From a virus: a DNA stretch of 64,000 bases. Every line of letters starts with the position of its first letter. Within the stretch, counting starts at the first letter, position 1. The stretch covers positions 1 to 64,000 of the IMG/VR virus record IMGVR_UViG_3300029999_000002; one strand, given 5' to 3'. Below the pieces are notes generated by a model. That model did not search any database. It was given only the letters and a program-made list of their open reading frames with translations, and was not told the origin of the DNA. Positions 31,991 to 49,662 of this stretch are shown here, one piece after another. Both the position numbers and the translations under genes were made by a program.

Positions 31991-33910
31991 ATGAAGAAGC
32001 TGATGACACTGCTGTTTGCAGTCGTGATGTTGTTTGGTGCACAGTATGCGCGCGCAACAGGACCCGCTGGGACACTCAATGTCGTGGCTTACAACGTCCT
32101 GGATTCAACGGGGACTCCGCTCGTTAGTGGTACTGTGTACTTCGCGCCAGTGGATGGCAGTGGTAACCCTTTGTCATACAGGCTGGGCAGCTTGGGGCAG
32201 GCAATAAGTTCTCCGGTCTCGGCGCCAATTGTCAATGGAGCTTTTTCACTCAATCTTCCTAACGTATCGCTCACAAACCCTGTGAACGTTTGCTTCAACA
32301 CGACAATCATCAATAATAGCAATGGGCAGAGTGTGCTGGGCGGAGGATATACTTGTGTCCAACCAAATCCCTCATTGGGGTGGTGCAATACAACGACTTG
32401 CGACTTTGATAACTATCCCCCAAACGAAGCGGGTATTGGGATCGTCTACCCTGCTACTGTTTCAATTGGCACTGTGACGACAGGAACGCCTGGGTCTTCG
32501 GCGTCTGCAACAATGAGTGGTACACCTTCAGCAGCTGTCTTGAATCTCACGTTGCCTCAGGGCATTCAAGGACCGATAGGCGCTCCTACCAGTGGCGTCA
32601 ATTTGTCTACAACTTCTTTGCAGATGATGCTTGGCCCTTTGAATAGTGCCGGGTTCAATGGTCTTGTAAATGCTGCTGTGCTGACAGGTTCAGACATCGG
32701 TGCAAAGATCAATAGCTTCGGCCCAACCGGAACACTATGGATTCCCGAAGGCACTTATAGCTTTTCCACGCCTATCTCCATCACACTCACCAACACGAAT
32801 AATTTGCATATCATCTGTGCCTCACACAACACTATCCTGAATTACACGGGAACGGGTGACGCAGTATATGTAAATGGGCAATTAGCCAATGGACAGTTTC
32901 ACATGGAGAACTGCCAGCTTAACGGTAACTCCGGTGCAACAAACGGTGTCCACTTATTTGACACAGCAAATGCAAGATTAACAAACATGGTGGTTTCAGG
33001 ATTCACTCTTGGTTCTGGTATATATGGCCAGGGATCTCTGCTGGGTATGTTTATTGGCAATGGAGTGACGAGCAACAAGTATGGTGTGCGGTTGCAACCC
33101 GATACCACTAACAATTATGCAGCCAACCGCAATAGTGTTATAGGGGGCTCGCTTGGGTACAACACATCCTTTAATTTTTGGGATGAGGGAAACTCCAGCA
33201 ACTATGGTGGGGATAGCAGTAATGTCTTGGATGGTGTAACGCTAGAAGAGAACGCTAATGTTGTTCAGTTCCTGGTTGAAGGTACATGGAACGATGCTAT
33301 CGTAAATAGCTATATTGAAAACAATTTTGGCACATCTACATCCAGTTTACCCACCGGAATTGTAGGCAACATTGCGAGCAGTGGGTACGGGTCCAATGCA
33401 ACATACACGGCAGTTGATTTTTCGTTCTCCAATAATTATGTAACTTCAGTATTAGCCGGGTCAGGGTTTGTCACTGAGACTTTACTTGCGGAGAACACAA
33501 CTGCATTAACTGTGACAACTATATCTGACACGGGATCTCCTAGTTACTTTGTAAACTTCAACGCTAGCGGTACTAATTCCTATACATCAATTGGAGTTTC
33601 TGAGGACAGTTGGAAAACTGCACCCTACTTGAATTTACCGACAGATGCGATAGCTTGGACGTTTCAGCAGACACCAGGGTCTTCAGGGTTTACAGGGTCA
33701 CCAACAGGATTGATTCTGGGTAGCTTGACAACGACAAAGACGGTCTCAAATGCCCTCATCCAGAATGGTGCAGCGCCTACAGTGGGTAGTGGTCAGATTT
33801 CTATTGGTGCTACTACAAATGGGGCCGCAGCATGTGGTTCTATTGTTGGAGCGGCCGGTTGCATTGTTTTCAATCTAGGTGGGGTAACTCACTATTTCCC
33901 TTACTGGTAG
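31991..33910 (+). CDS. fibre/spike-like protein with Sec signal peptide and beta-helix (pectin-lyase-like) domain
   Basis: MKKLMTLLFAVVMLFGAQYARA; IPEGTY and LNYTGTGDAV beta-helix cap; C-terminal GC.V.N..G..HY.PYW. Confidence 0.7.
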   Translation: MKKLMTLLFAVVMLFGAQYARATGPAGTLNVVAYNVLDSTGTPLVSGTVYFAPVDGSGNPLSYRLGSLGQAISSPVSAPIVNGAFSLNLPNVSLTNPVNVCFNTTIINNSNGQSVLGGGYTCVQPNPSLGWCNTTTCDFDNYPPNEAGIGIVYPATVSIGTVTTGTPGSSASATMSGTPSAAVLNLTLPQGIQGPIGAPTSGVNLSTTSLQMMLGPLNSAGFNGLVNAAVLTGSDIGAKINSFGPTGTLWIPEGTYSFSTPISITLTNTNNLHIICASHNTILNYTGTGDAVYVNGQLANGQFHMENCQLNGNSGATNGVHLFDTANARLTNMVVSGFTLGSGIYGQGSLLGMFIGNGVTSNKYGVRLQPDTTNNYAANRNSVIGGSLGYNTSFNFWDEGNSSNYGGDSSNVLDGVTLEENANVVQFLVEGTWNDAIVNSYIENNFGTSTSSLPTGIVGNIASSGYGSNATYTAVDFSFSNNYVTSVLAGSGFVTETLLAENTTALTVTTISDTGSPSYFVNFNASGTNSYTSIGVSEDSWKTAPYLNLPTDAIAWTFQQTPGSSGFTGSPTGLILGSLTTTKTVSNALIQNGAAPTVGSGQISIGATTNGAAACGSIVGAAGCIVFNLGGVTHYFPYW

Positions 33911-33934
33911 TAGCTGTTCTTAGCCTGATCAATC

Positions 33935-33972
33935 AAAGCCCACTGTGAGTATCCCGGTGGGCTTTTTGTTTT
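33935..33972 (+). terminator. hairpin A2, bidirectional terminator
   Basis: AAAGCCCACTG-TGAGTATCC-CGGTGGGCTTTTTGTTTT. Confidence 0.8.
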
Positions 33973-34019
33973 AACCACCGCTTATCGCGGAAAAGGGGAT
34001 CGCCATCACATACCAACCT

Positions 34020-34676
34020 ATGACCATTCCGGACTTCACAGCGGTCACTGTGTTCAACGGCTGGAACGTGATGCCGATGCCTCTCTATCCCGGCTTCAGA
34101 GATGTTGAGTTCACAGTCAATGACACGGTGGCGCAGGTTGCCAACCCATTCACGCAGCAGAGTCAGTTTCAATCATGGCCCGGTGGTGACTTTTGGGCTG
34201 GAACACTCACACTTCCCAAGATGAATCGTGCCTCGGCCGCTCAGTGGATTGCATTCCTGATGGCAGCACGAGGCTCAGCTAATTGCTTCCTGGTGGGTGA
34301 CCCTTCCATGAAGAACCCACAGGGATCTCCCACAGGCTCCATGGTGGCCAACACGACTGGCTCTAACAACGCAGCCATGACTACTTCCCTGTTCGTCTCT
34401 GGCCTCGTAGCGCTATCCACTCGCAACCTCCTGCCTGGAGATCAGATTCAGGTTGGTAACAGGCTGCACACATGTTTGAACACGGTGAACGCTGATGCAA
34501 GTGGTAATGCCAACATCGGAATTTGGCCAAGCCTCAGAGAGATTCCAACTAATGGAGAGGCCATTATCACCAACCATCCAAAGGGACTCTTCAGATTGGC
34601 GACTAACGCGCGCACATGGAGTGTAGATGAGACTCGTCTGTTCGGGTTGAGCTTCAAGATTGTAGAGGCCAAATAG
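34020..34676 (+). CDS. distal tail protein (Dit-like)
   Basis: NPFT.Q.Q...WPG..W...LTLP.M....A..W.AFL...RG; IWP.LR; position. Confidence 0.8.
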   Translation: MTIPDFTAVTVFNGWNVMPMPLYPGFRDVEFTVNDTVAQVANPFTQQSQFQSWPGGDFWAGTLTLPKMNRASAAQWIAFLMAARGSANCFLVGDPSMKNPQGSPTGSMVANTTGSNNAAMTTSLFVSGLVALSTRNLLPGDQIQVGNRLHTCLNTVNADASGNANIGIWPSLREIPTNGEAIITNHPKGLFRLATNARTWSVDETRLFGLSFKIVEAK

Positions 34677-34677
34677 C

Positions 34678-35232
34678 ATGTCACGACAACTGGACCCCTC
34701 TCTAGCTTCTGCGCTGTCTGATGGCATCATCTATCCCATCGTTCTTGTGATGCTGACCTTCGCATCAAGTACGAAGTATGTGTGGAGCGGCGTAGGCAAT
34801 TTTGTCTATAACGGCAACACCTATCTGGGTGTTGGATCTCTGGGCAGCATCAGCACGATTAGTGAAGGCTCCGAAGTGCAGGCAGATGGAATCAACCTGA
34901 AGCTATCAGGTATCGATCCTGTCTTCATGGGCGAGTGCATGGCTGACATTCAGCTGGGTGCACCTGCAAAGGTGTGGTTTGCCCTCGTGAGTGAAGGTGC
35001 CATTATTGGCTCCCCATATCTCATCTTCAGTGGCAACGTAGACCAGCCAAAGTTCAACACTTCTGCTGATGAGTGCTCGATAACTCTTTCACTAGAGAAC
35101 GAGTTGGTGAACCTTCAGAGAGCTAGTCAGCGCAGGTATACGAGTGCTGACCAAAGAAATTTTTATCCCAACGACACTGCATTCGGTTGGGTAGAACAGC
35201 TAAATGACCAGGCGCTTGTCTGGGGAACCTAG
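34678..35232 (+). CDS. minor tail / hub protein
   Basis: W.G.G....G.TY.GVG.LG.I..I.E, L.LSGI, RYT..DQ...YP.D..F. Confidence 0.8.
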   Translation: MSRQLDPSLASALSDGIIYPIVLVMLTFASSTKYVWSGVGNFVYNGNTYLGVGSLGSISTISEGSEVQADGINLKLSGIDPVFMGECMADIQLGAPAKVWFALVSEGAIIGSPYLIFSGNVDQPKFNTSADECSITLSLENELVNLQRASQRRYTSADQRNFYPNDTAFGWVEQLNDQALVWGT

Positions 35233-35242
35233 AGGAGACATC

Positions 35243-35683
35243 GTGGCATTAGTACGCAAAGATCATTGGGCCACGCGCTCCTATCATCAGTTCCTTATAG
35301 ACAACAAAGACAAGACATTCGAGTGGGGGTCCTGGGACTGCACAACATTCTGCGCCAATGCAATTGAGGCTATGACAGGTGTCGACATCGCTGATGAAGT
35401 TCGTGGAAAGTACACAACCGCTATTGGTGCCATGAAGCTAATCAAGTCACTTACTGGTGGAACTACTGTTGCTGATGCGGTTGCATACTGTGCGCAAAAG
35501 CATGGCCTTCCAGAACTTGAGAAGCCCAAGTTTGCAAAGCGTGGGGACGTGGTTGTCATCAAGAATGGTGATGACTTGATTGCAGGCATGGTGCACCTCA
35601 ATGGCAGGCATGTGATCTGTGTATCTGAGACGGGACTTGTTCGTCTATCGATTGAAAACGTACAGAGAGCATGGAGTGTATAG
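35243..35683 (+). CDS. NlpC/P60-like tail tip assembly protein
   Basis: FEWGSWDC..F.A..IEAMTG.D, A.RGDVV; GTG start with GGAG RBS. Confidence 0.8.
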   Translation: MALVRKDHWATRSYHQFLIDNKDKTFEWGSWDCTTFCANAIEAMTGVDIADEVRGKYTTAIGAMKLIKSLTGGTTVADAVAYCAQKHGLPELEKPKFAKRGDVVVIKNGDDLIAGMVHLNGRHVICVSETGLVRLSIENVQRAWSV

Positions 35684-35686
35684 GCT

Positions 35687-38587
35687 ATGAGCAAGGCACT
35701 TATGTCCGCTGCAATTGGCGCTGCGCTCATCGCAGGCGCAGCGGCTATCTTCATTGCTACGGGTGGCGTAGCAGCTGTCGCCGCCATCGGACTAGAAGCC
35801 ACCCTCGGAGCAACATCATCAGTAGTTGTCGGATTGGCTGTAGCTGGCATCTCGATGGAAGCAGCGTCGATTGCCAATGCTCTGACCACCAATCGTGGTA
35901 TGAATATCACCACGAGAGCAGCAGCAAGTTACAGACAAGTCATCTATGGGCAGCAGCGTGTTGGAGGCGTGACTATTTACCGCAGCACAACCGGCTCCCA
36001 TAAAGATCAGTACAATTATGTCATTGTTATAGCAGGGCATGAGATTGATAGCATTCAGAACCTATACCTGGATGGAAGACAAGTCTACTGGGATACGTCT
36101 TCGGTTGGTAACAGCACTCGCAACGGTGTGAACTTTGGCGGTAATGCTGATAGTAATAACCACGAGGGACCCAACGGAGTTCAATACAACTTCGGTTCTG
36201 GTAACGGTTATGCTGCTCAGGTCTTCTGTGACGCCTATTATGGCGACCAGGCTCCTAACACTGTTGACGGCCACCTCACAGCGAATGACCCTGTATGGGC
36301 ACCGGATGGTGCTGGTGGGTATCCCTGGGTCGCAGGCTGTGCCTATGTATACCTCAAGGTAGAGTCAAACGCCACCGAGTTCCCTGGTGAGCCTGAGATC
36401 AGATTCACGGTCAACGGTAAGAACAACATTCTTGATCCCCGCGAGCCGGCTGTTGATGGAATTCCCTACACTGGATTCACCTCTAACTGGGCGCTGATAG
36501 CAGCAGACATCATCACTGATCCCATCTTTGGTCTCGGTGATCCTACAGTAAATCAGGCTCAACTGATCGCAGCTGCAAATGTCTGCGATGAGCAGGTAGA
36601 TATTGCTATCGGTGGTACAGAAGCCCGATACCATATTGGACACCACTACGACACCTCAACGTCCCCAGGCGATGCCCTGAACTCAATCATGGCCTCGGCC
36701 GCTGGGCGCATTAGCCGTATTGGTGGTGAGTGGTACTTGTGGCCGGCTTATTGGCAGGGACCATCCTTCAGTTTCTCTGATACCAACTTCACGGGCGCTG
36801 TTGAGTGGAAGCCATATCGTAGCTATCGGGATCTCATCAATCGGGTGAACGGTACTTACACCGCTCCCAACTTCCCCTGGAATGTCACAGGCAATCTCTA
36901 TGATGCCAATGGCTTCTACAACGGGTTCACGCAGAATAACTTCGCGTTTGCCTTCCAGCCAACAAATTATCCCCAGTATGCGGCCGACGTGCTCCATGGG
37001 TACGCTTCGGATCAGTACCTGATAGCAGATGGCGGTAAACAGCTTCCACTTGAACTCACGCTGAACCCAGTGCTGTCAGTATCACAGGCGCAGAGAATTG
37101 CGAAAATCGCGCTACTGAGAAATAGGCAGCAGGGTATGGGAACCTTCCATCTCAATCTTGCTTGTTGGCAGATGCAGCCTGTTGACGTGTTCCTGTTTGA
37201 TTACGCTAACTACGGCTGGACGAGCAAGGTGCTTGAAGTTGGTTCTGTCAAATTCTCCATTTCTTCTGGATCAGATGAGTCGGCGCCCAGTGTGCGCGCC
37301 GAGTTTGAGGTTCACGAGACCGCCGAAACGGTTTATGAGTGGAGCACGGTTGAAGAGCTAACTGTCTATGACGTTGGTGCTACACCGACTCAGTATTCGG
37401 GCATTGTTGCACCGCCAACATCGCTCACAGCCGTGTCCTCAGCAGCAACCGCTCTTGTATCTCCAGATGGCAAGACAGTAACGCCTCGCATTGAGGTCAC
37501 CTGGGATACCCCGCTGGACACATATGTTTCGCAGATTCAGATTCAGTATCAGGTGGCTGAGACTACAGCTTGGCTGGATGGTGGCATCGTGTCCGTGGAG
37601 GCAAATCTCGCGTACATTGCCAACATCGTTGCTGGTCAACAGTACAACATTCAGATAGCTTCAGTCCGCGCCAATGGCAACACTTCAGCGTGGGTTGGTC
37701 CTGTGACAATCACTGCTGGCTTGGTTCTCTCAATTGAGACGGTAGCTGGCCTTGATCCTGGGTCTCTGGTTGGAGATGCTTATGATACGGGCTACGGAGC
37801 AGTAACCTGCAACCCGTTCACAGCACTGATTGGTCAAGTGTCTCTGCCAATCCTTCCTGGAGGCGCAGTCACTGTTTCCGTTGATGGAACAAGTGGACTC
37901 GCACCGCTAACACCTGTGTCGCAGCAGACCCTGTACTACGTGTACTACATTGACCTAACGTCGTCCGGTGGAAACATCACGCCAATCGTGACCACGAATC
38001 CAGTCGACTTCCTTGGAAAGCTTGGGTACTGGCTGATTGGAACAGTGACCACTCCCTATGCTGCTGTTACAGGTAGCGGTCCTGGTGGCAGCACTCCTGG
38101 GTCTTTGTATCAACCTTCAACCTCTACGAGTGTAGGAACCAGAACACCAACAAATCCCTCATGGGCATATGACGGTAACACGTCTACTTCTGCAGGGGTT
38201 GGTAGTAGTGCTACCAGTATTTATCGTCTTGGTTCTACAACTTCATCTTCATCATATGGGAATGTCACCTGGGGTGTATTCCCTAGCTATGTTGCTCCAT
38301 CAGGGGGAATGACGCTATCGATAAACCTGTCCTCAGTGGCGTCAGCAACTAACAACCCATTTGGTGCATGGACGTTGACAGCGGTTATCAATGGTGTTTC
38401 CTCAACGATAGCCTCTGGTACCAACACAACGCAACAGATATTTACGGCCGCAATCGCTGCTGGAGTGAATCTCAACACAATCTCAGTGACGTTGAATGTC
38501 GCGCCCGGTACTCCAGTTGCAAGCTCTGGAACAACAGTCGCAAGTGCGTCAACGAATGTATCTGTGTTCGAGATATATGCACAGTAA
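35687..38587 (+). CDS. central tail fibre / tip attachment protein (J-like, FN3 domain)
   Basis: RQVIYG..RVGG, AGHEID.I, AAANVCDE, AQRIAKI.L.R.R; Ser/Thr-rich C-terminal domain. Confidence 0.88.
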   Translation: MSKALMSAAIGAALIAGAAAIFIATGGVAAVAAIGLEATLGATSSVVVGLAVAGISMEAASIANALTTNRGMNITTRAAASYRQVIYGQQRVGGVTIYRSTTGSHKDQYNYVIVIAGHEIDSIQNLYLDGRQVYWDTSSVGNSTRNGVNFGGNADSNNHEGPNGVQYNFGSGNGYAAQVFCDAYYGDQAPNTVDGHLTANDPVWAPDGAGGYPWVAGCAYVYLKVESNATEFPGEPEIRFTVNGKNNILDPREPAVDGIPYTGFTSNWALIAADIITDPIFGLGDPTVNQAQLIAAANVCDEQVDIAIGGTEARYHIGHHYDTSTSPGDALNSIMASAAGRISRIGGEWYLWPAYWQGPSFSFSDTNFTGAVEWKPYRSYRDLINRVNGTYTAPNFPWNVTGNLYDANGFYNGFTQNNFAFAFQPTNYPQYAADVLHGYASDQYLIADGGKQLPLELTLNPVLSVSQAQRIAKIALLRNRQQGMGTFHLNLACWQMQPVDVFLFDYANYGWTSKVLEVGSVKFSISSGSDESAPSVRAEFEVHETAETVYEWSTVEELTVYDVGATPTQYSGIVAPPTSLTAVSSAATALVSPDGKTVTPRIEVTWDTPLDTYVSQIQIQYQVAETTAWLDGGIVSVEANLAYIANIVAGQQYNIQIASVRANGNTSAWVGPVTITAGLVLSIETVAGLDPGSLVGDAYDTGYGAVTCNPFTALIGQVSLPILPGGAVTVSVDGTSGLAPLTPVSQQTLYYVYYIDLTSSGGNITPIVTTNPVDFLGKLGYWLIGTVTTPYAAVTGSGPGGSTPGSLYQPSTSTSVGTRTPTNPSWAYDGNTSTSAGVGSSATSIYRLGSTTSSSSYGNVTWGVFPSYVAPSGGMTLSINLSSVASATNNPFGAWTLTAVINGVSSTIASGTNTTQQIFTAAIAAGVNLNTISVTLNVAPGTPVASSGTTVASASTNVSVFEIYAQ

Positions 38588-38611
38588 CCAGTAGTCCGCA
38601 AAGAGGAATTG

Positions 38612-39163
38612 ATGAACTATCTTCAGATAATCCAATATCTCTACCCTTCATCTGTCCAGGGTGCGGACTACTACTTCTCTCTCATGCTTGATGGTGTCAC
38701 TCCGATTCTCACGAATTGGAACACCACCAAGCTGGGAGTGCAGCCAACTGCTGCCACCCTGCAAGCAGCTTGGGCCGCAACGCAACTAAACTTGGCTCAG
38801 CAGCAGCAGCTTTTACTGTTGCAGTCCTGTGCAGCGGCAGCAATTACAAGCGGGTTCACATCCTCTGCGTTAGGCAGTCCGCACACATATCCATCACAGA
38901 CAACAGATCAGTTGAACTTGACTGCTTCAATAGTGGCTTCGATGATCCCAGCTGTAGAGACTGGCTATACCACTCTCTTCTACTGCGCTATCGGCAGCCC
39001 TCTCGTGTGGTCATTCACTTCACACACAGCAGCACAGATTCAGCAGGTTGGCATCGACGCCAAAGCGTGGATTCAATCTCAGCAAGCAATACATGCAACA
39101 CTCGCTGCCCAAGTAGCAGCAGCAACCACAGTCGCGACCGTCCAAGCAATTGTTTGGCAGTAG
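38612..39163 (+). CDS. tail fibre assembly-like protein (DUF4376-like)
   Basis: I.SGF.SSALG.PH.YPS...DQLNL, HTAAQIQQVG.D. Confidence 0.8.
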   Translation: MNYLQIIQYLYPSSVQGADYYFSLMLDGVTPILTNWNTTKLGVQPTAATLQAAWAATQLNLAQQQQLLLLQSCAAAAITSGFTSSALGSPHTYPSQTTDQLNLTASIVASMIPAVETGYTTLFYCAIGSPLVWSFTSHTAAQIQQVGIDAKAWIQSQQAIHATLAAQVAAATTVATVQAIVWQ

Positions 39164-39204
39164 TAGTTCAGGCCCTCTAACACAGCAATGCAGTCTGTTA
39201 CTGC

Positions 39205-39579
39205 GTGGGGAGAAACCATGTCATGGTCCCAGTAGATGTAGTTTTAGGAATAGCAGCCGCACTTGGTGGTATAGGAACATTCGTATTTGGTGGGGGTATG
39301 TTTCGCCAGATGTTTTCCCATAGCAACAAGATGGCAATTCAGTCGCACCGACAAGATCAGACTGAAGTGTTAGTCAAAGATAACAACAACTCCATTATCT
39401 CTCTTCAGATGACTGTGGCTTTGCAGAACCAAAACATGGAAGGCTTCCAGCGCCAGTTAATCAAGCTAGACCTTATTCCAGACATTAGCGCAAAGCTGAA
39501 CAGTTTTGGCCAAGTCATGGATGATGTCAAAGACCAACTCAGAGAGCTTCGCGAAGATCGCATTAGAGACAGAGAGTAA
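39205..39579 (+). CDS. holin-like or TM coiled-coil protein
   Basis: one N-terminal TM helix, coiled coil, charged C-terminus. Confidence 0.5.
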   Translation: MGRNHVMVPVDVVLGIAAALGGIGTFVFGGGMFRQMFSHSNKMAIQSHRQDQTEVLVKDNNNSIISLQMTVALQNQNMEGFQRQLIKLDLIPDISAKLNSFGQVMDDVKDQLRELREDRIRDRE

Positions 39580-39603
39580 GAGACAACACCGGAGATCCAC
39601 ATA

Positions 39604-40623
39604 ATGAGTTCTAACACTCGGACGGACCTCGCAACTCGCGAGTCCGTCATGGCAGAGGTGCGCGCCGGCATAAGCAACAGGCAGGTTGCCAGCAATCATG
39701 GAATTGATGAAGCAACCGTTCGTAGGATTCGCGCAGCATCTTTGCCGAAGCCTACCACGAATGTTGAGTACCTTGACAAGAAGATTGGTGGGTTCAACTG
39801 GCGTGATGCAATCGCTCCTATCCAGGAGATGCAGAAGCTCCACCGTGAAGCCTCTTGGTCCCAGCAGACTGCGACAATTCGTGTTGGCACTGGCCCTGGT
39901 CCCATTGGCATCCTTGTTTGGGGTGATCAGCATGTCGGCGCCAGAGGCACTGAGTATGACACGTTTGTCCAACTGACCGATCTCTTGCTTGAGACTCCAA
40001 ACTTGTACGCGATGCTAACGGGTGATGTTGCAGAGTGGGCAGTCAAGCTTCGAGGTGTTGCTGAAGTCTGCGCACAACTCCTTGATCCTTCTCTCCAGCT
40101 TCAGTTCATTGAGTCGTGGTTTGACGAGATCAAGCACAAGGTCATTGCCAGTACCTGGGGCAATCACACTGATGACAGATCAGAAGCCGGAATCGGTGTA
40201 TGTCCTCTCAAAAACATTATTGCCAAGCACGTTCCTTATTTCAGTGGCATCGGCCACATGGAATTGCTGGTTGGAGAGCAGTCATACAAGATTGCGTGCT
40301 CCCACAAGTTCTCTGGTGTGACAGCCCTTGACTCTACGGCGGGTGCGAAGAAATATCTAAGAATGGAAGCCCCAAGCTTTGATGCTGCCATTCAAGGGGA
40401 CTGTCATCGTGCTGGTGTCTCGATGTACAACGAAGGACCCAGCCACCGTATTGCTATTACCAATGGTACACACCATCTGCACAGCGGCTTCGCTGCACGT
40501 TATTTCTCTATCGCTACGAGTGACTGTATGCCTGTTCTAGCGTTGTGGCCAGATACGAAGCGCATGGTTGGCTTCTTCAATGTGGATCAGTTCACAGCAA
40601 CGATAGGTGGTAAGAGTGTCTAA
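39604..40623 (+). CDS. HTH plus calcineurin-like metallophosphoesterase
   Basis: N-terminal HTH (SNRQVA..HGI...TVRR); GDQHVG, GD, GNH, SH, GDCH motifs. Confidence 0.85.
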   Translation: MSSNTRTDLATRESVMAEVRAGISNRQVASNHGIDEATVRRIRAASLPKPTTNVEYLDKKIGGFNWRDAIAPIQEMQKLHREASWSQQTATIRVGTGPGPIGILVWGDQHVGARGTEYDTFVQLTDLLLETPNLYAMLTGDVAEWAVKLRGVAEVCAQLLDPSLQLQFIESWFDEIKHKVIASTWGNHTDDRSEAGIGVCPLKNIIAKHVPYFSGIGHMELLVGEQSYKIACSHKFSGVTALDSTAGAKKYLRMEAPSFDAAIQGDCHRAGVSMYNEGPSHRIAITNGTHHLHSGFAARYFSIATSDCMPVLALWPDTKRMVGFFNVDQFTATIGGKSV

Positions 40624-41236
40624 GTCATTAGTGATTGGGTTTAGTGGTTTGGCCCGGTCGGGAAAAGACTCTTGTGTTGATCACTTGGTCAGCAAATATA
40701 AGAGCAGCAAAATTCTAAAGACCTCATTTGCGAAAAAATTACGCAGTGAAGTTCACAAAGCTATGCACGCGGTAATGGAAGAGCAAACCTGCTCCGAGCG
40801 TGAAGGTCTTAGAGTGCTCTGTGAGCGTGAAGGTGTTGAGTATGAACCCTTCGCTTGCAGAGACACGATGGACCCTTTTGGCAAGCAACGTTATCTCCTT
40901 CAAGCCTGGGGAATGAAGCGAAGAAATGAACATGCTGATTATTGGGTTGAGAAAGTAGAAGAAGAGATTGCTTCTAGGCAGCCTGATTTCGTGCTCATTT
41001 CTGATCTCCGTTTCGAGAACGAGGCTGCCTACATAGCCAGCGTTGAAGGAAAGACTGTAAGGGTAAATCGTCCCAATAGTGGGCTTACTGGACAGGCAGC
41101 AACTCATGTGTCCGAGCACGCGCTTGCACACTATGCATTTGATTACGAGATTGCTAACACGGGCACAATCAAGCATCTTCACCAGCGAGTGGAGCAGGTG
41201 TTCGGGGCAATTCAGCAAACGAGGTTCAAATGGTAA
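40607..41236 (+). CDS. deoxynucleoside monophosphate kinase
   Basis: GLARSGKD P-loop, SFA..L, R.LLQ.WG, ISDLRF.NE, H.SE. Confidence 0.9.
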   Translation: MVRVSKSLVIGFSGLARSGKDSCVDHLVSKYKSSKILKTSFAKKLRSEVHKAMHAVMEEQTCSEREGLRVLCEREGVEYEPFACRDTMDPFGKQRYLLQAWGMKRRNEHADYWVEKVEEEIASRQPDFVLISDLRFENEAAYIASVEGKTVRVNRPNSGLTGQAATHVSEHALAHYAFDYEIANTGTIKHLHQRVEQVFGAIQQTRFKW

Positions 41237-41487
41237 TAGAGACAGCCCTAGCCGCCTTGGTTGGCGTCTTCGCTGCACAGTCCCTGAACGCAGCAGTGTC
41301 TGCAATGTCCAAGCCGAAGCGGGACGACGGAGCTTATGCCTACTGGTTTAAGTTTTTGCATGCCGAGGCATCCATAGTTACTTCTCTGATCGAGAAGAAG
41401 GTAGATGGACTTGATGTGCAGACAAACACGTTCGTAAAAACTGAGACCGCGATTACACCGGCCTCCTCAACAGACCCAAAAAGCTAA
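41230..41487 (+). CDS. small membrane protein, possible holin
   Basis: hydrophobic N-terminus; A.SAM..P.....Y.YWF.F.H. Confidence 0.5.
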   Translation: MVIETALAALVGVFAAQSLNAAVSAMSKPKRDDGAYAYWFKFLHAEASIVTSLIEKKVDGLDVQTNTFVKTETAITPASSTDPKS

Positions 41488-41501
41488 CAAGGAGTAACAC
41501 T

Positions 41502-41915
41502 ATGAGTTTGATCACTGATTTGAAGTCGTTCGCATCGAAGGTAGAAGTTGCTTTCAAGAAGCTCTTCGGTGATGCGCCCGAGTGGATCACTATTGCACAG
41601 GGTGTGCTCACCTACCTGGGACCGGTCGTTGTCACGATCCTGACCATTGGTGGTGGCGTGGCTCTGGGCACGGAAGCGAACACCATCATCGCTGGTATCA
41701 AGTCCGATCTGGCTACTGCCATGGCAACTGTGACTACGGTCAACGCTGCTTCCAGCCTGCCTGCATTGCTGACTGGTATTCAGGCTCAGTTGCCTGCGCT
41801 CTTGGCTGCGGTCAAGGTCAGCAACCCGACGAAGGCTGCTGAGATCGAGAACTACACGAGCATCATCTCGACGGAGCTCACGGCTGTTGTCAATGCCATT
41901 CCTTCTGTTGCCTAA
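41502..41915 (+). CDS. hypothetical amphipathic / membrane protein
   Basis: 137 aa, AGGAG RBS. Confidence 0.7.
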   Translation: MSLITDLKSFASKVEVAFKKLFGDAPEWITIAQGVLTYLGPVVVTILTIGGGVALGTEANTIIAGIKSDLATAMATVTTVNAASSLPALLTGIQAQLPALLAAVKVSNPTKAAEIENYTSIISTELTAVVNAIPSVA

Positions 41916-41937
41916 GAACTATCCAAGTAATTCCTCA

Positions 41938-41961
41938 GGGGCGCGCTAGTACAGGCGCCCC
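41938..41961. repeat. hairpin B1
   Basis: GGGGCGC-GCTAGTACAG-GCGCCCC; homologous to 46302 and 49626. Confidence 0.8.
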
Positions 41962-41988
41962 GACATTTTGTAACAGATAAGGACCCTC

Positions 41989-44900
41989 ATGAACCGTTTG
42001 TTTAAAGCAGTTCTCGCCCTCGTGTGTCTGTTTGGCCTGGGCCAAATGGCGAGTGCGCAGACCACCACCGTCACGGCTGCACATTTGAAAATGGGTGGCT
42101 ACCTTATTTCTACAGGACAGGTTGACATTACACCTGTTAATTTGCAGGGTGTTCCCATTGCTTTCGCTGATGCCACTGGTGCCCAGAACGGACCCACGGC
42201 GTATTCTTGCCAAGTTGTAGCCGGCGTGATCACTGGCGCCATCGGTGAAACCGGAACTGTTAGCGGAACCTGCGTCGTACCCGATGCGTCCCTCACGACT
42301 CCTGCCAACATCCTGTACCAGATTCAGGTTCTGGATCAGTCCACTGGGCAGCGCACCTCTGGCTTGGCTTACACCATGCAGGCTGTTGTAGGTGTCACAG
42401 GCTCTACCTGGGCTCTGGATCACTATGGTCCCCCGGCTCAGACTTCTGCTGTAAGCTCGCTTCAGGCTACTCAGGGCTCTACCTTGCCCACGTCCTGCGT
42501 CTCGCCCTCGGTGTTTACCTACTACAACACAGGTGGTTCATTTCTTGGCTTCTATACCTGCGTGGGTGGCGTTGAAGTTGCCATCACTACAGGCAGCACA
42601 GGTCCAACTGGTCCTGCTGGACCTACAGGTCCCGCTGGTACGGCTGGTGCAACGGGTCCCACGGGAGCAACAGGTCCAACTGGCCCAACTGGATCAACGG
42701 GTGCCACTGGTCCTACAGGCTCAACCGGCTCCGCTGGCGCTGCTGCCACCATCGCTGTTGGCACTGTGACCGCGCTGTCTCCTGGTGCAACGCCTACCGT
42801 TGTCAATGCAGGCACATCGAGTGCGGCCACTTTCAACTTTGGTATCCCTAGCACTTCTAGCTTGACTCTGGCCAACATTGGGGCAGGGGCAGCAGGCGCT
42901 GGTCTGTTTGACTTCTCCGCTGCGACCGCGCTGAAGGTTCCTATTCATGCAGGTGCAACAGCTGCCGCTGCTGGTGAGTTGATCTATGACTCGACCAACG
43001 GCAACCTACACACGAATGTTGTTGGCACTGATTTGATCCTTGCTGGATTCCCTTCTGCGTCCCTGCCTACAACCGGCCATTGCGCTCAGTTCACTGAAAT
43101 TGGCGCCTGGTGGGAGATCACGGATGCTGGGGCGGCTTGCGGTAGTGGCTCTGGTGGTGCGCCCTATCCGTCTGGTTCTGGTATTCCAGTTGTCGCTGGT
43201 GGTGCATCGTGGGGAACCACCGTAGCTGCCCCCGCTGGAGCCATCGTTGGTACCACTGATACCCAGATGCTGACCAACAAGACGGTCGATGGTGTAACTC
43301 CTGCGACCTTGGCGTTCATGGATGCCACGAGCAGCGTTCAGACTCAATTGAATGCGCGCACGTCTAGCACAAAGGCTAAGTATGTATCTACCGTCACCGG
43401 TGTAACATCATACCCGTACACAAATTGTGCACCTGGAGCTTCAGCAACTGGGTTGACAGACAGTTGGTCTGTGATAAACGCTTATGCTGCCACTGCTGGC
43501 CAGCGATTGGAGTTTGACGGCTGTTTTGCGTTGAGCCAAGCACTAACTCCCAACTCTTCCACCACCCTCCATGGCGCATTTGGTGGCGCGGGCGTCATTA
43601 TGCTCACGGGTGCCAACACTCCAGCCATCCAGAACCTCCATCAGGCCGGACCCACCACCGCCAGCGGCACGGGAGGGTATGCCGTTTCTAACATCACGGA
43701 CACCAACATCAGCGTGTCTGACATGATGATCAACTGCAACTCAACGCAATCCGTCACCGGCAGCGGCAACGGCCAGAGCGTAGCACACACTACCAACAGT
43801 TCAAACGTGTGGATCTTCTGTGAACAGTACCTTGGCGTTAGCGGTCTGTTCCACGATCACAACTACGTCTACGACGCAGGCACATATAGTGTCATGTACT
43901 CCAACGTGGAGCATGCTTGGTTTGGTCATGACCAATTGATCCAACCCACACCGTTGGTGCTGAAAAAGAACACGGACGGACTGCATTGCACCGGGCCATG
44001 CACGGACATTCACATCAGTGATGAGCGGATTCTAGCTGGCGACGACGCTATGGCCATCAACTGTAATGACGGCAACCAAACAGACCCCGGAGCCTACCCG
44101 ACCGGCTTCAAGTTCGGCCCGTGCCTGGGCTTCTATATCAACAACGTCAACATAGACGGTAGCTTGTCCGGCCCGCTCATCTATAGCAGCACTGAGCTAG
44201 CAGACGACATCCACATGAATAACATCGGCGGGACAGTCCTCGGTAACGGTCTAGAGATTGCACCGTTCACCACCGGCCCGGGTAACGTTGGCAGTGTCTA
44301 TATCAGCGGCTACAGTTCGCAGTCCAACGGTTCACAGAACCCTTGGTCGCAACCGTATCCCTTCCTCATCACGGCCAACTACAAGCTTATCGAGCTTGGC
44401 ATCCAGTACAAGAACCCCGCAGCCGCCGTTGCGACGTGGCCGATTCTTACCCATAACGTCGCGACCCCGGGCATCCTGTCGTTGCGGAACTGGGACGTGA
44501 ACACCTCCACCACGACCCTAACCGTCCCTTTGATTGACATAACGGGTGGAGGCGCTCCGCAGGTCTCTATCAGTGGCCTGAACTGGCAGGATGTCATCAC
44601 GGGCGGGACCGCTACCGTGTTCGGCGGCTCGACCGTACCGGCCACGCTCAACTGCTCCAACTACAACGGTCCGAACCGTCTGCTCGCGTCTGGGTTCGCT
44701 CCAGCCCAGCAAAACGGCGACTGCTTCACCAACACCTATCCCTCTACCCACACCATCGGTTTGATTCCCGCGATGACGGGTGGAAACACCACGATAGCTG
44801 CAGACCAGGTAACCCTTTTGGGAACTCCCTTCCCGGTGTCGGGAACACTGTCCTCGATTAGCTTCCAATATGGAGCTGCACCCGGCAGCACTACTCCCAT

Positions 44901-45204
44901 AACGATAGCAATCTTCAGCGGTACGCTGCCTAACCTAACCGTTGTCAACAGCTTCACCGTCACTCCAGCAAATGTAGCGACAGTGCAAACGATGACAGGT
45001 GGCGGTGTCAACTTCCCAACGACAGCTATCACAGCAGGGGAGTATATCGGATACTGGGGAACAACCGTAACGCCAGGCTTCGGTGTGGCTTCGGGGTATA
45101 ACATCTACTACTCACCGTCACACACAACCCTGCCCACCGGCTCGGTCGCGTATACGCTGCTAGGCGGGGATGCGATTGCTTTGACTGCAACCACAACTCC
45201 CTAA
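41989..45204 (+). CDS. fibre/adhesin-like protein with signal peptide, collagen GXY repeat and beta-helix glycosidase-like domain
   Basis: [23 protein letters not shown]; (GPT/GAT)n repeat; NTDG.H...GDD..A resembles GH28/pectin-lyase active-site motifs. Confidence 0.75.
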
Positions 45205-46241
45205 GAGCTATACCAAACCGCAGTACGTTCAATGGACTCAGCCAGAGAATAATGCTGGCTGAGTCCAAGTTCGTGTTGCACCCGCTGCGTTGCTGGAACA
45301 TAGCGCGTGGGTGCAACACCTTCCTTTGGATGTTGAGCAATGCTGATTGGCAAAGAGGGGTTGAGGGTGTCTGCTGTAAGGCGTGCCAACTCAGCGATGC
45401 TGATTGCCTCATCTGAACCCACGTTGAATGGGCGAAGAGTAGGAGCTTTGAAAAGAATAGTCCACAACCAAACTGCGAGATCAGCCGCGTAGAGATATGA
45501 ACGTAATGGTGTGCCATCCCCACCGATCTGAATTGGTGATCCTTTGATAGCATCTCGAATGAAGTTTCCAACAGCAAAGTTGCTGTCAAGAGGCAGATTG
45601 GGACCTACGAAGGCAAAGCAGCGCGCAATCTTGAACTCAATAGATGATTGCTTTGCGTACAGTGCGCACATCAGTTCTGATGCCCTTTTCCCTTCACCAT
45701 AAGCAGAATTTGGGGAAAGCACATCCGGCGCACCGAGGAATTCTTCTGAAACGTTGCTGAGATCAGTTGGTTGTACACCATAGACAGCACCCGAGCTAGT
45801 GAGAAGAAACTTCTTAGTTGCATGGGTGGCTGCAAACTCTAACATATGTGCAGTGCCCTCTGTGATAGCAGTGTATCGCTCAATAGGATTGCTATTTTTA
45901 GTGATTGTAGAAACCTCTGTTGCAGCGTGGATAACAAATTCAAATTCACCTGGAGGTATCTGGAACGACCTTATATCTCCAGAGACCATAGTTACGGATG
46001 GATCACTAGCAAGATGAGGTGATTGTGTTCTAAAACGTTCTGGGTAACGTGTGAGTACAGATACCTCAGCGTGTAAAGTCAACTTTTTGTTGATATGCAG
46101 GAATGTTGAGAGTAGCCATGTGCCGAAGAATCCAGTACCACCTGTGATGAAGAGTCTCTTATTCCTAAGCTCATCCCACAGTGGGCGGGTCTGCTCAAGC
46201 ACAAAGTTTAGGTCATCAGTTGCAAAGGGCTTGTTAGTCAT
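45201..46241 (-). CDS. NAD-dependent nucleotide-sugar epimerase/dehydratase (moron)
   Basis: [24 protein letters not shown] (YxxxK), [11 protein letters not shown]. Confidence 0.92.
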
Positions 46242-46261
46242 AGTTATTCCTCACTGCGCCC

Positions 46262-46290
46262 ACCATACAGCATTAGAAACAATTTGTCAC
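46262..46290 (-). promoter_or_regulatory. promoter of the epimerase moron
   Basis: GTGACA, 17 nt, TATGGT. Confidence 0.55.
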
Positions 46291-46301
46291 AACCTGAACC
46301 C

Positions 46302-46340
46302 AAGAGGGACGTGCTTGTATAGGCGTCCCTCTTTTCTTGT
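46302..46340 (+). terminator. hairpin B2, terminator-like
   Basis: AAGAGGGACG-TGCTTGTATAGG-CGTCCCTCTTTTCTTGT. Confidence 0.75.
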
Positions 46341-46365
46341 ATGACACCAGATAAGGACACAACTC

Positions 46366-49300
46366 ATGAAATTTTTGTATCGATTCGCCCTTGCCCTTGT
46401 ATGTCTGTTCGGCCTGGGACAAGTTGCAAGCGCGCAATCTACAACTGTTACAGCATCACAAATCAAGATCAGTGGGTTTCTCATCCCAACAGGACTGGTG
46501 ACCTTTGCCCCAGTTGACATCAACGGCGCACCCATCTCGTTTGCAGACGGTACCGGCGCCCAGAACGGTCCTAAGGCCATCGCGTGCCAGATCGTCAACG
46601 GTGCCATCACTGGAGCCCTCACTGAATCCGGGTCCGTTAGCGGATCGTGCGTAGTCCCCGACTCCTCGCTGACCACTCCTCAAAACATTATGTACCAGAT
46701 TCAGGTCACCGATCAGTCCACAGGACTGAGAACAAGTGGCATTAGCTACACACTGCACACGGTTGTTGGCGTGTCTGGATCAACCTGGGCGCTAGACCAT
46801 TATGGCCCCCCTGCTCAGACGACCAACGTGAGCCCTCTTGAGTCCAGTGTGGGCACCGTGCTTCCCAGCCCCTGCGTGGTGCCGTCCGTATTCACCTTGA
46901 TGGCTTCAGGTGTGCTCTCAGGCTTCTACACATGTGTTGGTGGTACAGAAGTTCTCATCACTAATGGAACTGGTAGCGGCTCGGTAGGCCCTATGGGACC
47001 GACCGGACCTACTGGTGCAACCGGCGCTGCTGGATCAAATGGTGCAGCCGGCCCCAACATTGTTACCACGTCGACCTCAACCACGATCACAGGATTGCTA
47101 AAGGGTAATGGCAGCAATGTGGGTCTTGCGGTTGCAGGTACTGATTACATGCTGCCCACCAGCAACATCACAGGCACGGCCGCAGGCTTGAGTGCAGCTT
47201 CTGCTCTACCTAATGGCACCACGGTCACAACGCAGTCAACAAGTGACACAAGTGGACAGGCTGCTTCTGATGAGTTCGTAGCTGCTGCCATTACAGCCTC
47301 AGGTGGTGCTGCTCCCGGAGCCTATCTTCAGACAGGTGCAAGTGGCAGTCAGACCATGGTGATCCCAGCTGCTGGCGGTCTTTTCGAAACGGAGACAAAC
47401 AACACTCTAGCTTCTATGGTCATGCACAAACTGACGCTGCTCAATGTGGGTCAAGGATACGATCTCGGCAGCCCTTGGAGCACGCATAACACGCTGACTC
47501 TCAACGAACTCAACACTGTTCGCGGCAACAACCAGATGATCCCAATCACGTTCAACAATTGGGCCGTGGGTGATGCGGATGGTTTGTATATTGCCATGCT
47601 GAACTTTGGTGGTAAGAAGTTTGCCAGCGACGAGGGTGTAAATACACAGACTTTGCAGATGCATCAGGCACCTGAGATTTATGGGCCACTAGCCACACCA
47701 CAAGCAGGCAATCTGTTTGGGGCATTCGGTGCGCTAGTTGCTGGTAATACATTCATTTCTATTGGTGCTGTGTTCCCGGTCACGGGTCAAGTGCAGACTG
47801 TGAGCATCCCGTTCCCAAGTGGTTCCACTGCGCAGACAGCTTATGTCGGTGTTGGAACTTTGGGTACAGCAAACAGCATCACAATCACTCAAGTTGTTCC
47901 CATCAGCATCCCTACGACGGTCGGAAACAACACCCAGGTTTACACTGCTGGGTCCACACTTCCTACCTTGTTAGCTTCAGGTGGGCAGGTGCTGCTCTAT
48001 TTCCAAGCTACGGGTGAGGGTCCATCTGGCACCTCTGTTTCTCCAAACTGTCTTCCTGCATCTGGAGTTCCGACTGTTGGAACCTACACGATGTCAACCA
48101 CGAATGCTGCCTGCAACATCGGTGGCTATTATGGTGGCCTTGTTATTGAAGCAACCCAAGCTGCACCCACAGTTGGTGCAACGACCATCTGGATCAATCC
48201 TGTTAGCTACTATGGCTATCTGGACTACAATCTGAGCCCGCCAATGTTCTCAGATGATCAGATCGTCTATGACACAGCTTCAGTTGCAACGGGTACCATT
48301 GGTTCGCAGTCGACGCTGGAAGGTCTTGCTACTGGGTTCACTCTTAGTTCAGGAACGGTTCCAGTTTCTACCGCGTTTGGGTTCCTGTCTGCTTGCTCTG
48401 GTTCGGGCAATGGTCAGACTCAGGTTGCAGCACTGGTGACCTGCACGGTTACACCCTCTACCTCACCAGCGAGCGGTGCGTTCGTTGCACCCATCACGCT
48501 GACAGGTTCGACAACCAGTGGCAGCACGACGGTACCAGTATCTTCCACCACTGGCATGATTGTTGGGCAGATGTTGATTGGAACAGGAATCCCGGCTTGG
48601 GACACGATTGCTTCCATTGGGTCTGGTTCAGTAGTCATGACCACGGCCGCAACTGCGACCAACAGCACTGAAGCAATGCACATCAGGACCACTGTGGCTA
48701 TCTCCGGATACTTCGGTGAGACCGCTGCGATGTCAACTGTCACAGCTTTGTCTGGTGGAACGCAGACCATTGCATTCTATTCGACGTATCCCCCCGTTGC
48801 TCACGATGGCGAGTTCATTGGACAGGGTGGTATGGCTGGTACCGGCATGACAATTGCGAACACAGGCTGGGCTCCTATGTGGCAGATCATTGCTTCTATA
48901 TCCAGCACTCAGTTCATTCTCAGCAACTGCGTCACTGGAGGCTGCTTCACTACCGGTTACCTTCCTGCTGCTACCAATAGTGCTTACTTCTATCCGATGA
49001 GCTATGTGAATGGCACCAACGGAGGAATCTCCGGATCGGCAAATCTGTTAGCAAATGATATGCCTGACAATCCAGGTGATGGCATCGAAGGTGCGCCGTC
49101 AACTGAGTATTCAGGCAACATCACCTTTGAGGTGTTTGGGCAGAATACCCCAATTGATTACTCGCAACCAAGCGGCATGCACTACATGTTGCATGATGGC
49201 CCGATTGGTCCTGCTTACGAGTGGGACATTCAGGAGAATGGCAGCCTGTTCACAAACACCATGATGTTGAACGGTGTTCACTACGGGTCTGTGTTCAGCT

Positions 49301-49602
49301 TCTCTCACTATCCGACCACTTGCTTTGCATGTTGGAGCAGTCAGTCTTCGGGTGCAGTCTTCACTCTGTTCGGTGTCTACAACGTGGGCAACTTCAGTGT
49401 TGATTACAGCGGGTTCCACTTCAACACGCCTCTGAGCTCTAACAACATTGTGTTCAGTGCTGCTGCTCCCACGACCACTACGGGACAGGTTGGCTTTGGA
49501 TCAACAGTCGTTGCATCTAGCTTCTGCGGATCACTGAGTGGAGCAATTGGATGCACTGTGATTAACGTCGCAGGAACTGCCCATTATCAACCATACTGGT
49601 AG
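46366..49602 (+). CDS. fibre/adhesin-like protein with signal peptide and short collagen repeat; paralog of the 41989 gene
   Basis: [23 protein letters not shown]; first ~195 aa closely match the 41989 product; C-terminus matches the 31991 product. Confidence 0.75.
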   Translation: MKFLYRFALALVCLFGLGQVASAQSTTVTASQIKISGFLIPTGLVTFAPVDINGAPISFADGTGAQNGPKAIACQIVNGAITGALTESGSVSGSCVVPDSSLTTPQNIMYQIQVTDQSTGLRTSGISYTLHTVVGVSGSTWALDHYGPPAQTTNVSPLESSVGTVLPSPCVVPSVFTLMASGVLSGFYTCVGGTEVLITNGTGSGSVGPMGPTGPTGATGAAGSNGAAGPNIVTTSTSTTITGLLKGNGSNVGLAVAGTDYMLPTSNITGTAAGLSAASALPNGTTVTTQSTSDTSGQAASDEFVAAAITASGGAAPGAYLQTGASGSQTMVIPAAGGLFETETNNTLASMVMHKLTLLNVGQGYDLGSPWSTHNTLTLNELNTVRGNNQMIPITFNNWAVGDADGLYIAMLNFGGKKFASDEGVNTQTLQMHQAPEIYGPLATPQAGNLFGAFGALVAGNTFISIGAVFPVTGQVQTVSIPFPSGSTAQTAYVGVGTLGTANSITITQVVPISIPTTVGNNTQVYTAGSTLPTLLASGGQVLLYFQATGEGPSGTSVSPNCLPASGVPTVGTYTMSTTNAACNIGGYYGGLVIEATQAAPTVGATTIWINPVSYYGYLDYNLSPPMFSDDQIVYDTASVATGTIGSQSTLEGLATGFTLSSGTVPVSTAFGFLSACSGSGNGQTQVAALVTCTVTPSTSPASGAFVAPITLTGSTTSGSTTVPVSSTTGMIVGQMLIGTGIPAWDTIASIGSGSVVMTTAATATNSTEAMHIRTTVAISGYFGETAAMSTVTALSGGTQTIAFYSTYPPVAHDGEFIGQGGMAGTGMTIANTGWAPMWQIIASISSTQFILSNCVTGGCFTTGYLPAATNSAYFYPMSYVNGTNGGISGSANLLANDMPDNPGDGIEGAPSTEYSGNITFEVFGQNTPIDYSQPSGMHYMLHDGPIGPAYEWDIQENGSLFTNTMMLNGVHYGSVFSFSHYPTTCFACWSSQSSGAVFTLFGVYNVGNFSVDYSGFHFNTPLSSNNIVFSAAAPTTTTGQVGFGSTVVASSFCGSLSGAIGCTVINVAGTAHYQPYW

Positions 49603-49625: not shown

Positions 49626-49662
49626 GAGGGGCGCGCTTGTACAGGTGCCCCTCTTTTCTTGT
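49626..49662 (+). terminator. hairpin B3, terminator-like
   Basis: GAGGGGCGC-GCTTGTACAG-GTGCCCCTCTTTTCTTGT. Confidence 0.75.

Follow-up and report, generated by a model that had tools for sequence, protein, structure and literature searches.

The stretch of DNA analysed here (the window) is the first 64 kb, positions 1 to 64,000, of the IMG/VR virus record IMGVR_UViG_3300029999_000002, a siphovirus-type record of 89,140 bases, from an uncultured phage of soil bacteria, that is estimated to be 81% complete. It contains three genes, P0001, P0002 and P0003, for fibre-like proteins which all begin with a Sec-type leader, and which an original prediction made from the DNA alone had taken to be paralogous phage fibres that are exported and fold with disulfides in the periplasm. 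Among cultured phage records, none was matched by DNA or by N-domain protein. The genes and their leaders are as follows:

31991..33910, + strand: P0001, a leader-bearing fibre/tailspike-like protein of 639 amino acids (aa), its gene flanked by those of the tape measure and the distal tail protein
31991..32056, + strand: Sec-type leader of P0001, residues 1-22, predicted cut between ARA and T
41989..45204, + strand: P0002, a leader-bearing fibre-like protein of 1071 aa
41989..42057, + strand: Sec-type leader of P0002, residues 1-23, predicted cut between ASA and Q
46366..49602, + strand: P0003, a leader-bearing fibre-like protein of 1078 aa, with a body in no known family
46366..46434, + strand: Sec-type leader of P0003, residues 1-23, predicted cut between ASA and Q

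All three leaders combine one or two basic residues with a 15-residue uncharged core and a small-x-small site. Using a rule-based heuristic of our own, and not a trained predictor, we scanned the 293 window open reading frames (ORFs) of at least 60 aa for three features, namely basic residues in the n-region, a hydrophobic core that is free of charges and ~7-15 residues or more in length, and small amino acids at positions -3 and -1. This flagged 17/293 ORFs, with P0001, P0002 and P0003 taking the top three scores and an 82-aa minus-strand ORF (57119-57367) scoring just below them. The +1 residues (T, Q and Q) and the lack of RR in the n-regions indicate that these are neither lipoprotein nor Tat signals. 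A Shine-Dalgarno-like AAGGA or GGAGA is positioned 5-6 nt ahead of each leader ATG, and no in-frame starts are present between the leader and the conserved domain in P0001, P0002 or P0003. Judged from these sequence features, a true start downstream of the leader, which the original prediction had named among the cases against it, appears to be ruled out, and signal-peptide starts are upheld for all three genes by their n-h-c layout, small-x-small cuts, top scan scores and ribosome sites.

Behind the leader, each protein carries one copy of a shared N-terminal domain:

32072..32503, + strand: shared N-terminal beta-sandwich domain, P0001 subtype, 4 cysteines
42058..42570, + strand: shared N-terminal domain, P0002 subtype, two sub-domains, 4 cysteines
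46435..46944, + strand: shared N-terminal domain of P0003, P0002 subtype

P0002 and P0003 are 65% identical over residues 1-216 and unrelated beyond, with the N-domain their best conserved part, and P0001 shares 30% identity with them over the first 134-175 residues (E 4e-8 and 9e-10), which bears out the homologous domain that had been claimed for the three genes. The record carries exactly three copies of the domain, all leader-bearing, and no leaderless copy. A structural model of the N-domain (predicted local distance difference test score, pLDDT, of 83.8) consists of a leader helix, then a beta sandwich, and then a second small sheet. Foldseek comparison with predicted viral structures gave five matches at E <=0.001 (range 1.7e-5 to 4.6e-4), to the N-termini of actinophage minor tail proteins, of a collagen-like siphovirus protein and of several proteins named tail fibre. 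The best rows from VIA-align against solved chains (Z 5.5-6.6, where the tool calls Z <8 common) were a cyanophage neck fibre, a Bxb1 tail-tip chain, pilins, an Ur-lambda tail-tip chain (94 residues) and transthyretin-like domains. The Ur-lambda chain, which is the Stf collar, was matched at Z 5.9 with a root-mean-square deviation of 2.7 A over 85 residues, also within the range called common, and the likeness to lambda Stf is therefore a weak fold match only, with no sequence relation shown. In the consulted part of the Ur-lambda paper, Stf residues 1-94 form the collar domain, with twelve copies encircling the tube-tip junction from outside and a flexible linker joining each copy to the trimeric shaft. 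This geometry would permit docking on a finished tail, and the resemblance of the modelled N-domain to the collar is only suggestive. On these models, the N-domain is probably a transthyretin-like beta sandwich that resembles the collar or anchor domains of other phage fibre N-termini. Complex prediction for the distal tail protein and the N-domain scored 0.00 in two runs with no controls, and has no bearing either way.

Beyond the N-domain, the three proteins differ in their stalks and distal bodies:

32660..33562, + strand: right-handed beta-helix, P0001 residues 224-524, of the tailspike, polysaccharide lyase and epimerase fold
33746..33907, + strand: C-terminal 54-residue module of P0001, common to P0003
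42592..42741, + strand: collagen triple-helix repeat (PF01391), P0002 residues 202-251
43966..44070, + strand: stretch with a sub-threshold GH28-like match, P0002 residues about 660-694, a lead only
46978..47058, + strand: nine Gly-X-Y triplets read from the sequence, P0003 residues 205-231
49438..49599, + strand: C-terminal module of P0003, common to P0001

The collagen-like linkers of the original prediction are clear in P0002, whose repeat passes the Pfam gathering cut-off for PF01391 (32.4 bits against 27.2), but weak elsewhere, with no Pfam match to PF01391 in P0001 or P0003 and three and nine Gly-X-Y triplets, respectively. Two beta-helix glycosidase-like bodies had also been anticipated. 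One is confirmed, that of P0001, with AlphaFold giving pLDDT ~90 at residues 224-524 and poor values elsewhere, and its best Foldseek match is Geobacillus virus E2 ORF18 (E 1.1e-7), with further matches to the AlgE4/AlgE6 epimerases, the RbmB lyase, and the tailspikes of Sf6, CBA120, AM24 and Fri1. For the P0002 body, the one indication is a GH28 match over residues 458-870 which, at 15.7 bits, falls below the Pfam cut-off of 22.9. The P0003 body had no match in any library or structure search made. A sequence search of solved structures gave nothing for P0001, matched P0002 via the collagen repeat only and P0003 at chance level only, while NCBIfam returned only sub-threshold collagen-adhesin matches for the fibre proteins, and the ESM Atlas only virus-like clusters with scores <0.8. 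All homologues found for the P0001 beta-helix (7/7) start with leaders, and several have no N-domain profile match. The C-terminal module common to P0001 and P0003 is 46% identical between them, has a Cys-x8-Cys loop and an HYxPYW end, and found no relative beyond this record among 5.8 billion clusters or 165 fetched proteins.

The wider family was surveyed at two depths. A word-based search with P0002 residues 1-200 yielded 21 proteins, including members with leader-like N-termini from Granulicella sp. 5B5 and Granulicella sp. dw_53. Relatives join the domain to bodies of several kinds, with SGNH esterases, collagen repeats and beta-helices among them, and a leader is present in all 21 except one short-started representative. 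A profile of the mature domain, built from 25 sequences and scored against 1.84 billion representatives, placed 1301 clusters in the family at E <=0.001 and 1021 at E <=1e-10, with SGNH esterase domains in many members. Among the best 150 of the 1301 representatives there were 126 with a leader, 20 leaderless, 3 N-terminal fragments and 1 with a shortened start, although the 126:20 ratio is biased in that the profile was itself built from leader-bearing sequences. Such a survey had been put forward as a check on the original prediction, and its outcome is a leader that is widely conserved. A -3/-1 site is found at the domain border in 125/126 leader-bearing representatives, with Ala at -1 in 117 and Ala or Val at -3 in 107, and the n-region has Lys or Arg in 124/126 with a median core of 15 residues. 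This n-h-c layout and the Ala-x-Ala site are kept across the family while the leader sequence drifts. The +1 residue is Gln in 80/125 of the predicted cuts in these leader-bearing representatives, which belong to Acidobacteriota phages.

The 20 leaderless homologues begin with Met and 3-5 residues, in an M-P-T-G start, directly before the conserved motif. A hidden leader on these proteins was considered and ruled out, as each ORF had been called from the earliest start codon that follows the upstream stop. Once cut at the predicted site, the leader-bearing forms would have the same N-terminus that is natural to the leaderless forms, and since the latter start just before the same conserved motif, the leader would be an add-on to a complete fibre.

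The original prediction had also drawn attention to paired cysteines, and the mature parts of P0001, P0002 and P0003 do contain 8, 16 and 14, respectively, all even numbers and mostly arranged as near neighbours. In the leader-bearing representatives the N-domain has four cysteines in 87, six in 25, two in 7, five in 4, eight in 2 and three in 1, compared with one in 13, two in 6 and four in 1 of the leaderless homologues, from which the partner cysteines are missing. Counted from the domain start to the protein end, cysteine totals are even in 116/126 leader-bearing representatives (binomial p 5e-24) versus 9/20 leaderless ones (Fisher p 2.8e-6), and the bodies have ~1.5 versus ~0.9 cysteines per 100 residues. 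In a tree of 83 domains, calculated with cysteines masked, the leaderless rows fall within one region and 1-2 state changes suffice to explain them, and a tree-based sign test of the link between leader and cysteines had only 1-2 independent pairs, which is too few. Within the leaderless region three sisters do bear leaders, and these have the first cysteine of a pair at a position that is Gly in the leaderless proteins. Even counts with the leader, and not without it, argue that the leader is used and that disulfides may form in the periplasm, on a link that reflects one or two evolutionary switches. Predicted export and oxidative folding are thus favoured by comparison, through the kept leader, the even cysteines and the lack of a downstream start, but not by experiment. 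From the leaders together with the paired cysteines, we judge it very probable that the proteins fold outside the cytoplasm, the compartment of phage assembly.

Evidence for kinship to tail fibres comes from the position of the genes, and in the window the tail-module context of P0001 is provided by the following:

28624..31941, + strand: tape measure protein
34020..38587, + strand: distal tail protein (34020-34676), two small tail proteins and a J-like central fibre, the parts near which a side fibre would dock

We compared this with 7 genome loci and 16 viral loci, 3 of the latter being duplicates of other loci (two of them genome loci), which leaves 20 distinct loci. The genome loci are from Tunturiibacter gelidiferens, T. 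psychrotolerans, Edaphobacter modestus and four assembled genomes (Terriglobales among them). At 17/20 distinct loci the fibre gene lies beside homologues of the tail genes of the window, in phages or prophages of Terriglobales (Acidobacteriota). The usual slot is 0.5-3.5 kb past the J-like gene, and at L010, L012 and P0001 it is directly 3' of the tape measure gene. In genome G195, three large leader-bearing ORFs separate the tape measure gene from the distal tail protein gene, and across loci L003-L025 a leader is found on every member seen, after discounting upstream over-extended ORF calls. At L025 (10001-15996), the tail chaperone genes are parted from the tape measure gene by two leader-bearing fibre genes, which disrupts a gene order that is among the most conserved in siphophage tails. 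The prophage at L045 has leaderless and leader-bearing copies side by side, and a leaderless copy adjoins the tape measure gene in a Granulicella tundricola prophage. In a read-assembly relative of the latter, a 1759-aa ORF (P0164) comprises the tape measure and a leaderless fibre. We rejected a true fusion, as the join is a frame change near the end of the tape measure that reads through the spacer, and is probably an assembly or indel artefact; a programmed shift would be the less likely alternative.

Leader-bearing copies are present in the cultured strains Tunturiibacter gelidiferens M8UP28, T. psychrotolerans X4BP1 and Edaphobacter modestus DSM 18101, with a single copy in each of these three genomes, in each case within the tail module. 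Among genomes of the same family, 13/201 had a match, giving 17 matches at 1-2 copies each, 11 leader-bearing and 6 leaderless, where both the tally and one of the leader-bearing matches include the unpublished genome G005. This patchy spread among host genomes is the pattern of prophage genes, and for the N-domain we rejected a host housekeeping family captured by phage, on the basis of the single tail-module copies and the 13/201 genomes. Going by their tail-module sites and an N-domain like those of other phage fibre N-termini, the three proteins are real relatives of tail fibres. Comparison is what establishes this homology to tail-module fibres, as it does the conservation of the leader and the leader-cysteine link.

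The remaining gene order of the window sets P0001 apart from the other two genes. Following head-side genes of terminase, portal and capsid size, the tail module runs from small tail proteins (27111 and 27527) and a homing-endonuclease-like gene (27869) to the tape measure protein and P0001, which nothing resembling a promoter or terminator sets apart from each other, and continues with the distal tail protein (34020), two small tail proteins, the J-like central fibre (35687-38587) and a small fibre-family protein (38609). Beyond the tail are an exonuclease gene, a deoxynucleoside monophosphate (dNMP) kinase gene, P0002, a reversed NAD-dependent epimerase gene, P0003, and an endolysin-like gene with a membrane-anchored neighbour, which places P0002 and P0003 3.4 kb past the J-like gene and behind two non-structural genes. 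Hairpins are found upstream of P0002, upstream of P0003 and downstream of P0003. They are GC-rich with a similar loop (41938-41961, 46303-46332 and about 49633-49648, respectively), and both upstream hairpins are followed by the same CAGATAAGGAC ribosome-site block. The alike hairpins and CAGATAAGGAC block suggest that the P0002 and P0003 cassettes may have originated by duplication. A consensus scan detected no sigma-70-like sites just 5' of the fibre genes on the + strand, and none of the six ATRCAG-type sites was ahead of a fibre gene. The gene between the two cassettes (45201-46241, - strand) has a Pfam match (E 4e-33) to the NAD-dependent sugar epimerase/dehydratase family and may be a surface-sugar-modifying accessory gene.

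Several other features of the window were observed. The homing-endonuclease-like gene (27869-28639, PHROG E 1.6e-26) is an insertion that separates tail chaperone-like genes from the tape measure gene. The start of the J-like central fibre (35687-35800) encodes a long hydrophobic Gly/Ala-rich stretch, and a homologue from the family Acidobacteriaceae (L047) has a similar start. Downstream of the portal gene, a 670-aa ORF (19621-21633) contains 26 cysteines, 18 of which fall in three near-identical C-x-C-x-C-x2-C-x7-C-x6/7-C blocks in its C-terminal third. Furthermore, a 146-aa ORF (52466-52906), ~1.4 kb past the last ORF of the endolysin-led cluster of the lysis region, has a lipoprotein-type start (LTA followed by GC) and could be an outer-membrane spanin or an exclusion lipoprotein.

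The original prediction had offered three fates for the exported proteins, namely joining virions at lysis, clearing capsule, and serving as surface adhesins or decoys, and the comparisons made do not tell these apart. The reading that we prefer, with a rough probability of 0.35, is that the exported fibres dock on finished tails at lysis via their collar-like N-domain. Here, relatives of phage side tail fibres and tailspikes would have been placed on the Sec route, with the leader taking the unfolded chain through the inner membrane and signal peptidase I cutting a few residues before the conserved domain. In the periplasm the chains would fold, trimerise and form disulfide bonds, and the N-domain would then dock the matured fibres onto the outside of tails built in the cytoplasm. 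The moment of docking would be lysis, once holin, endolysin and spanin merge the two compartments, after which the thick surface polysaccharide of the host would be the target of the distal beta-helix and the other domains. Export, cleavage and disulfides, and above all docking at lysis, are what we infer. In favour of docking, the family has kept both N-domain and stalk with strong conservation, leaderless fibres of tail modules have the same domain, and the genes are deep inside tail operons. Side fibres are also known to be added to the tail late, and to its outside. Furthermore, as all three domain copies in the record bear leaders, these proteins are the only candidates that this phage has for depolymerase fibres.

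A number of points weigh against docking. The case for export consists of sequence comparison and a rule-based leader scan, and we know of no tailed phage whose particle takes up parts from the periplasm. As few as 1-2 changes of state underlie the link between leader and cysteines, a caveat that is softened because bodies of many unrelated kinds all keep even counts and because the three sisters with leaders among the leaderless rows still have the first cysteine, and to this is added the bias in the leader ratio noted above. The fold matches to the collar domain (Z about 6) are at a level that the tool calls common. P0002 and P0003 are cut off from the tail genes by the exonuclease and kinase genes, and are hairpin-flanked with an opposite-strand epimerase gene between them and lysis genes next to them, a layout that looks like accessory cassettes. 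The leaderless and leader-bearing pair of L045 fits a division of labour in which the leaderless protein alone joins the particle, and several homologues of the P0001 beta-helix consist of a leader and an enzyme with no match to the N-domain profile.

Nearly as likely as docking at lysis, though itself tentative, is that the proteins are exported as free or envelope-bound exo-enzymes that never join the particle. They would then be fibre-derived depolymerases or lectins, free in the periplasm and, after lysis, in the surroundings, which trim or de-acetylate host polysaccharide and so loosen the matrix for release, spare progeny from debris, or block superinfection. The conserved leader and the cysteines speak for this fate as much as for docking, and the cassette-like layout of P0002 and P0003 beside lysis genes, the two kinds of copy in the L045 prophage, the leaders on 7/7 P0001 beta-helix homologues (several without the N-domain match) and the SGNH esterase domains in many family members all fit it, as does the precedent of Pantoea WceF, an exported tailspike-like glycanase (PMC7949094, in the part consulted). 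However, a free enzyme would not need an N-domain of 130-200 residues and a collagen stalk, which are kept across >1000 clusters, and in P0002 and P0003 it is the N-domain that is best conserved (65%) while the bodies are unrelated. The position of the genes deep in tail operons also counts against it, and the phage would then have no particle-borne fibre depolymerase.

Retention at the envelope is considerably less probable. Lambda-type phages do have exported accessory genes, lom and cor, within their tail-fibre regions, and by analogy with the mosaic adhesive trimer (MAT) fibres of Bdellovibrio the N-domain could hold the exported protein on the envelope of an infected or lysogenic cell as an adhesin, decoy or exclusion fibre. 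However, leaderless homologues with the same N-domain occupy the same tail-module slots, and its partner is therefore more likely to belong to the tail than to the envelope; there is no evident route through the outer membrane, and as nothing like a promoter or terminator separates P0001 from the tape measure gene, its expression in a lysogen is unlikely. Least probable in our view, and improbable outright, is that the hydrophobic N-terminus is unused for export or remains uncleaved, leaving ordinary fibres assembled in the cytoplasm. To our knowledge this is the default for every studied tailed phage, and all textbook pathways of tailed-phage assembly known to us are cytoplasmic. The leaderless homologues demonstrate that the fibre can work without a leader, but an unused N-terminus would hardly have kept its n-h-c layout and Ala-x-Ala site despite sequence drift, or be accompanied by even cysteine totals in 116/126 leader-bearing representatives versus 9/20 leaderless ones.

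Lambda Stf and the leaderless family members, such as the Granulicella tundricola prophage protein, have the same tail-module position as the fibres described here. Like Stf-type fibres, these combine a conserved beta-sandwich N-domain and a stalk with variable distal enzyme or binding domains, but unlike the leaderless Stf-type fibres they have a cleavable-looking Sec leader and extra paired cysteines. The comparisons that follow draw on the consulted parts of each source. The MAT fibres of Bdellovibrio bacteriovorus (PMC10769870) have a signal peptide, a beta-rich N-domain of ~130 aa, a trimeric fibre and swappable tips related to phage spikes, which matches the window fibres (leader, N-domain, fibre and variable tips) when compared by architecture alone. 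However, MAT genes are chromosomal genes of a predator whose fibres have been shown on the cell surface, whereas the genes of the window type are in phage tail operons. WceF of Pantoea stewartii (PMC7949094) is an exported trimeric beta-helix of the tailspike fold that shortens the cell's own exopolysaccharide, and the P0001 body has the same kind of fold together with an export signal; WceF, though, uses a Tat signal and belongs to a polysaccharide synthesis cluster, whereas the window leaders have no twin arginine and the genes are in a phage. In Porphyromonas phages (PMC10367356), signal peptides were reported on capsid, spanin and unknown genes, alongside a 'Q rule' for Bacteroidetes signal peptidase I, and the likeness lies in phage genes adapted to host secretion and in the Gln exposed after the cut (80/125 here). 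In the part consulted, that paper names capsid, spanin and unknown genes, but not tail fibres.

A survey of carbohydrate-active enzymes in soil prophages found signal peptides on 5% of enzymes, with tail fibres excluded by design, and the main text of the Tunturi virus paper on Acidobacteriota phages (PMC11924767) contains neither 'signal peptide' nor 'tail fiber'. We found no description of leader-bearing tailed-phage fibres in the literature searched, with the supplements of PMC11924767 and PMC10367356, which could list such genes, lying outside that search. The suggestion that this is an undescribed system therefore agrees with the published descriptions found, but holds only within that literature.

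It is possible, if doubtful, that a widespread group of tailed phages of soil Acidobacteriota builds its particle in two compartments, with a cytoplasmic head and tail and Sec-exported, disulfide-bonded side fibres for host recognition and depolymerisation that are clipped on only at lysis. Such a build would be the natural counterpart, in a bursting cell, of classic in-vitro fibre complementation. Because related prophages sit in cultured strains, the question is directly testable. If periplasmic maturation is true, disulfide-stabilised receptor-binding proteins would form a distinct class, the secretion and oxidation machinery of the host would become host factors for phage infectivity, and annotation pipelines in which a leader is reason to discard a gene as 'non-structural' would overlook the receptor-binding proteins that many soil phages encode. 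If instead the proteins stay off the particle, phages of carbon-rich acidic soils would encode a large class of exported, polysaccharide-active enzymes that has gone unrecognised.

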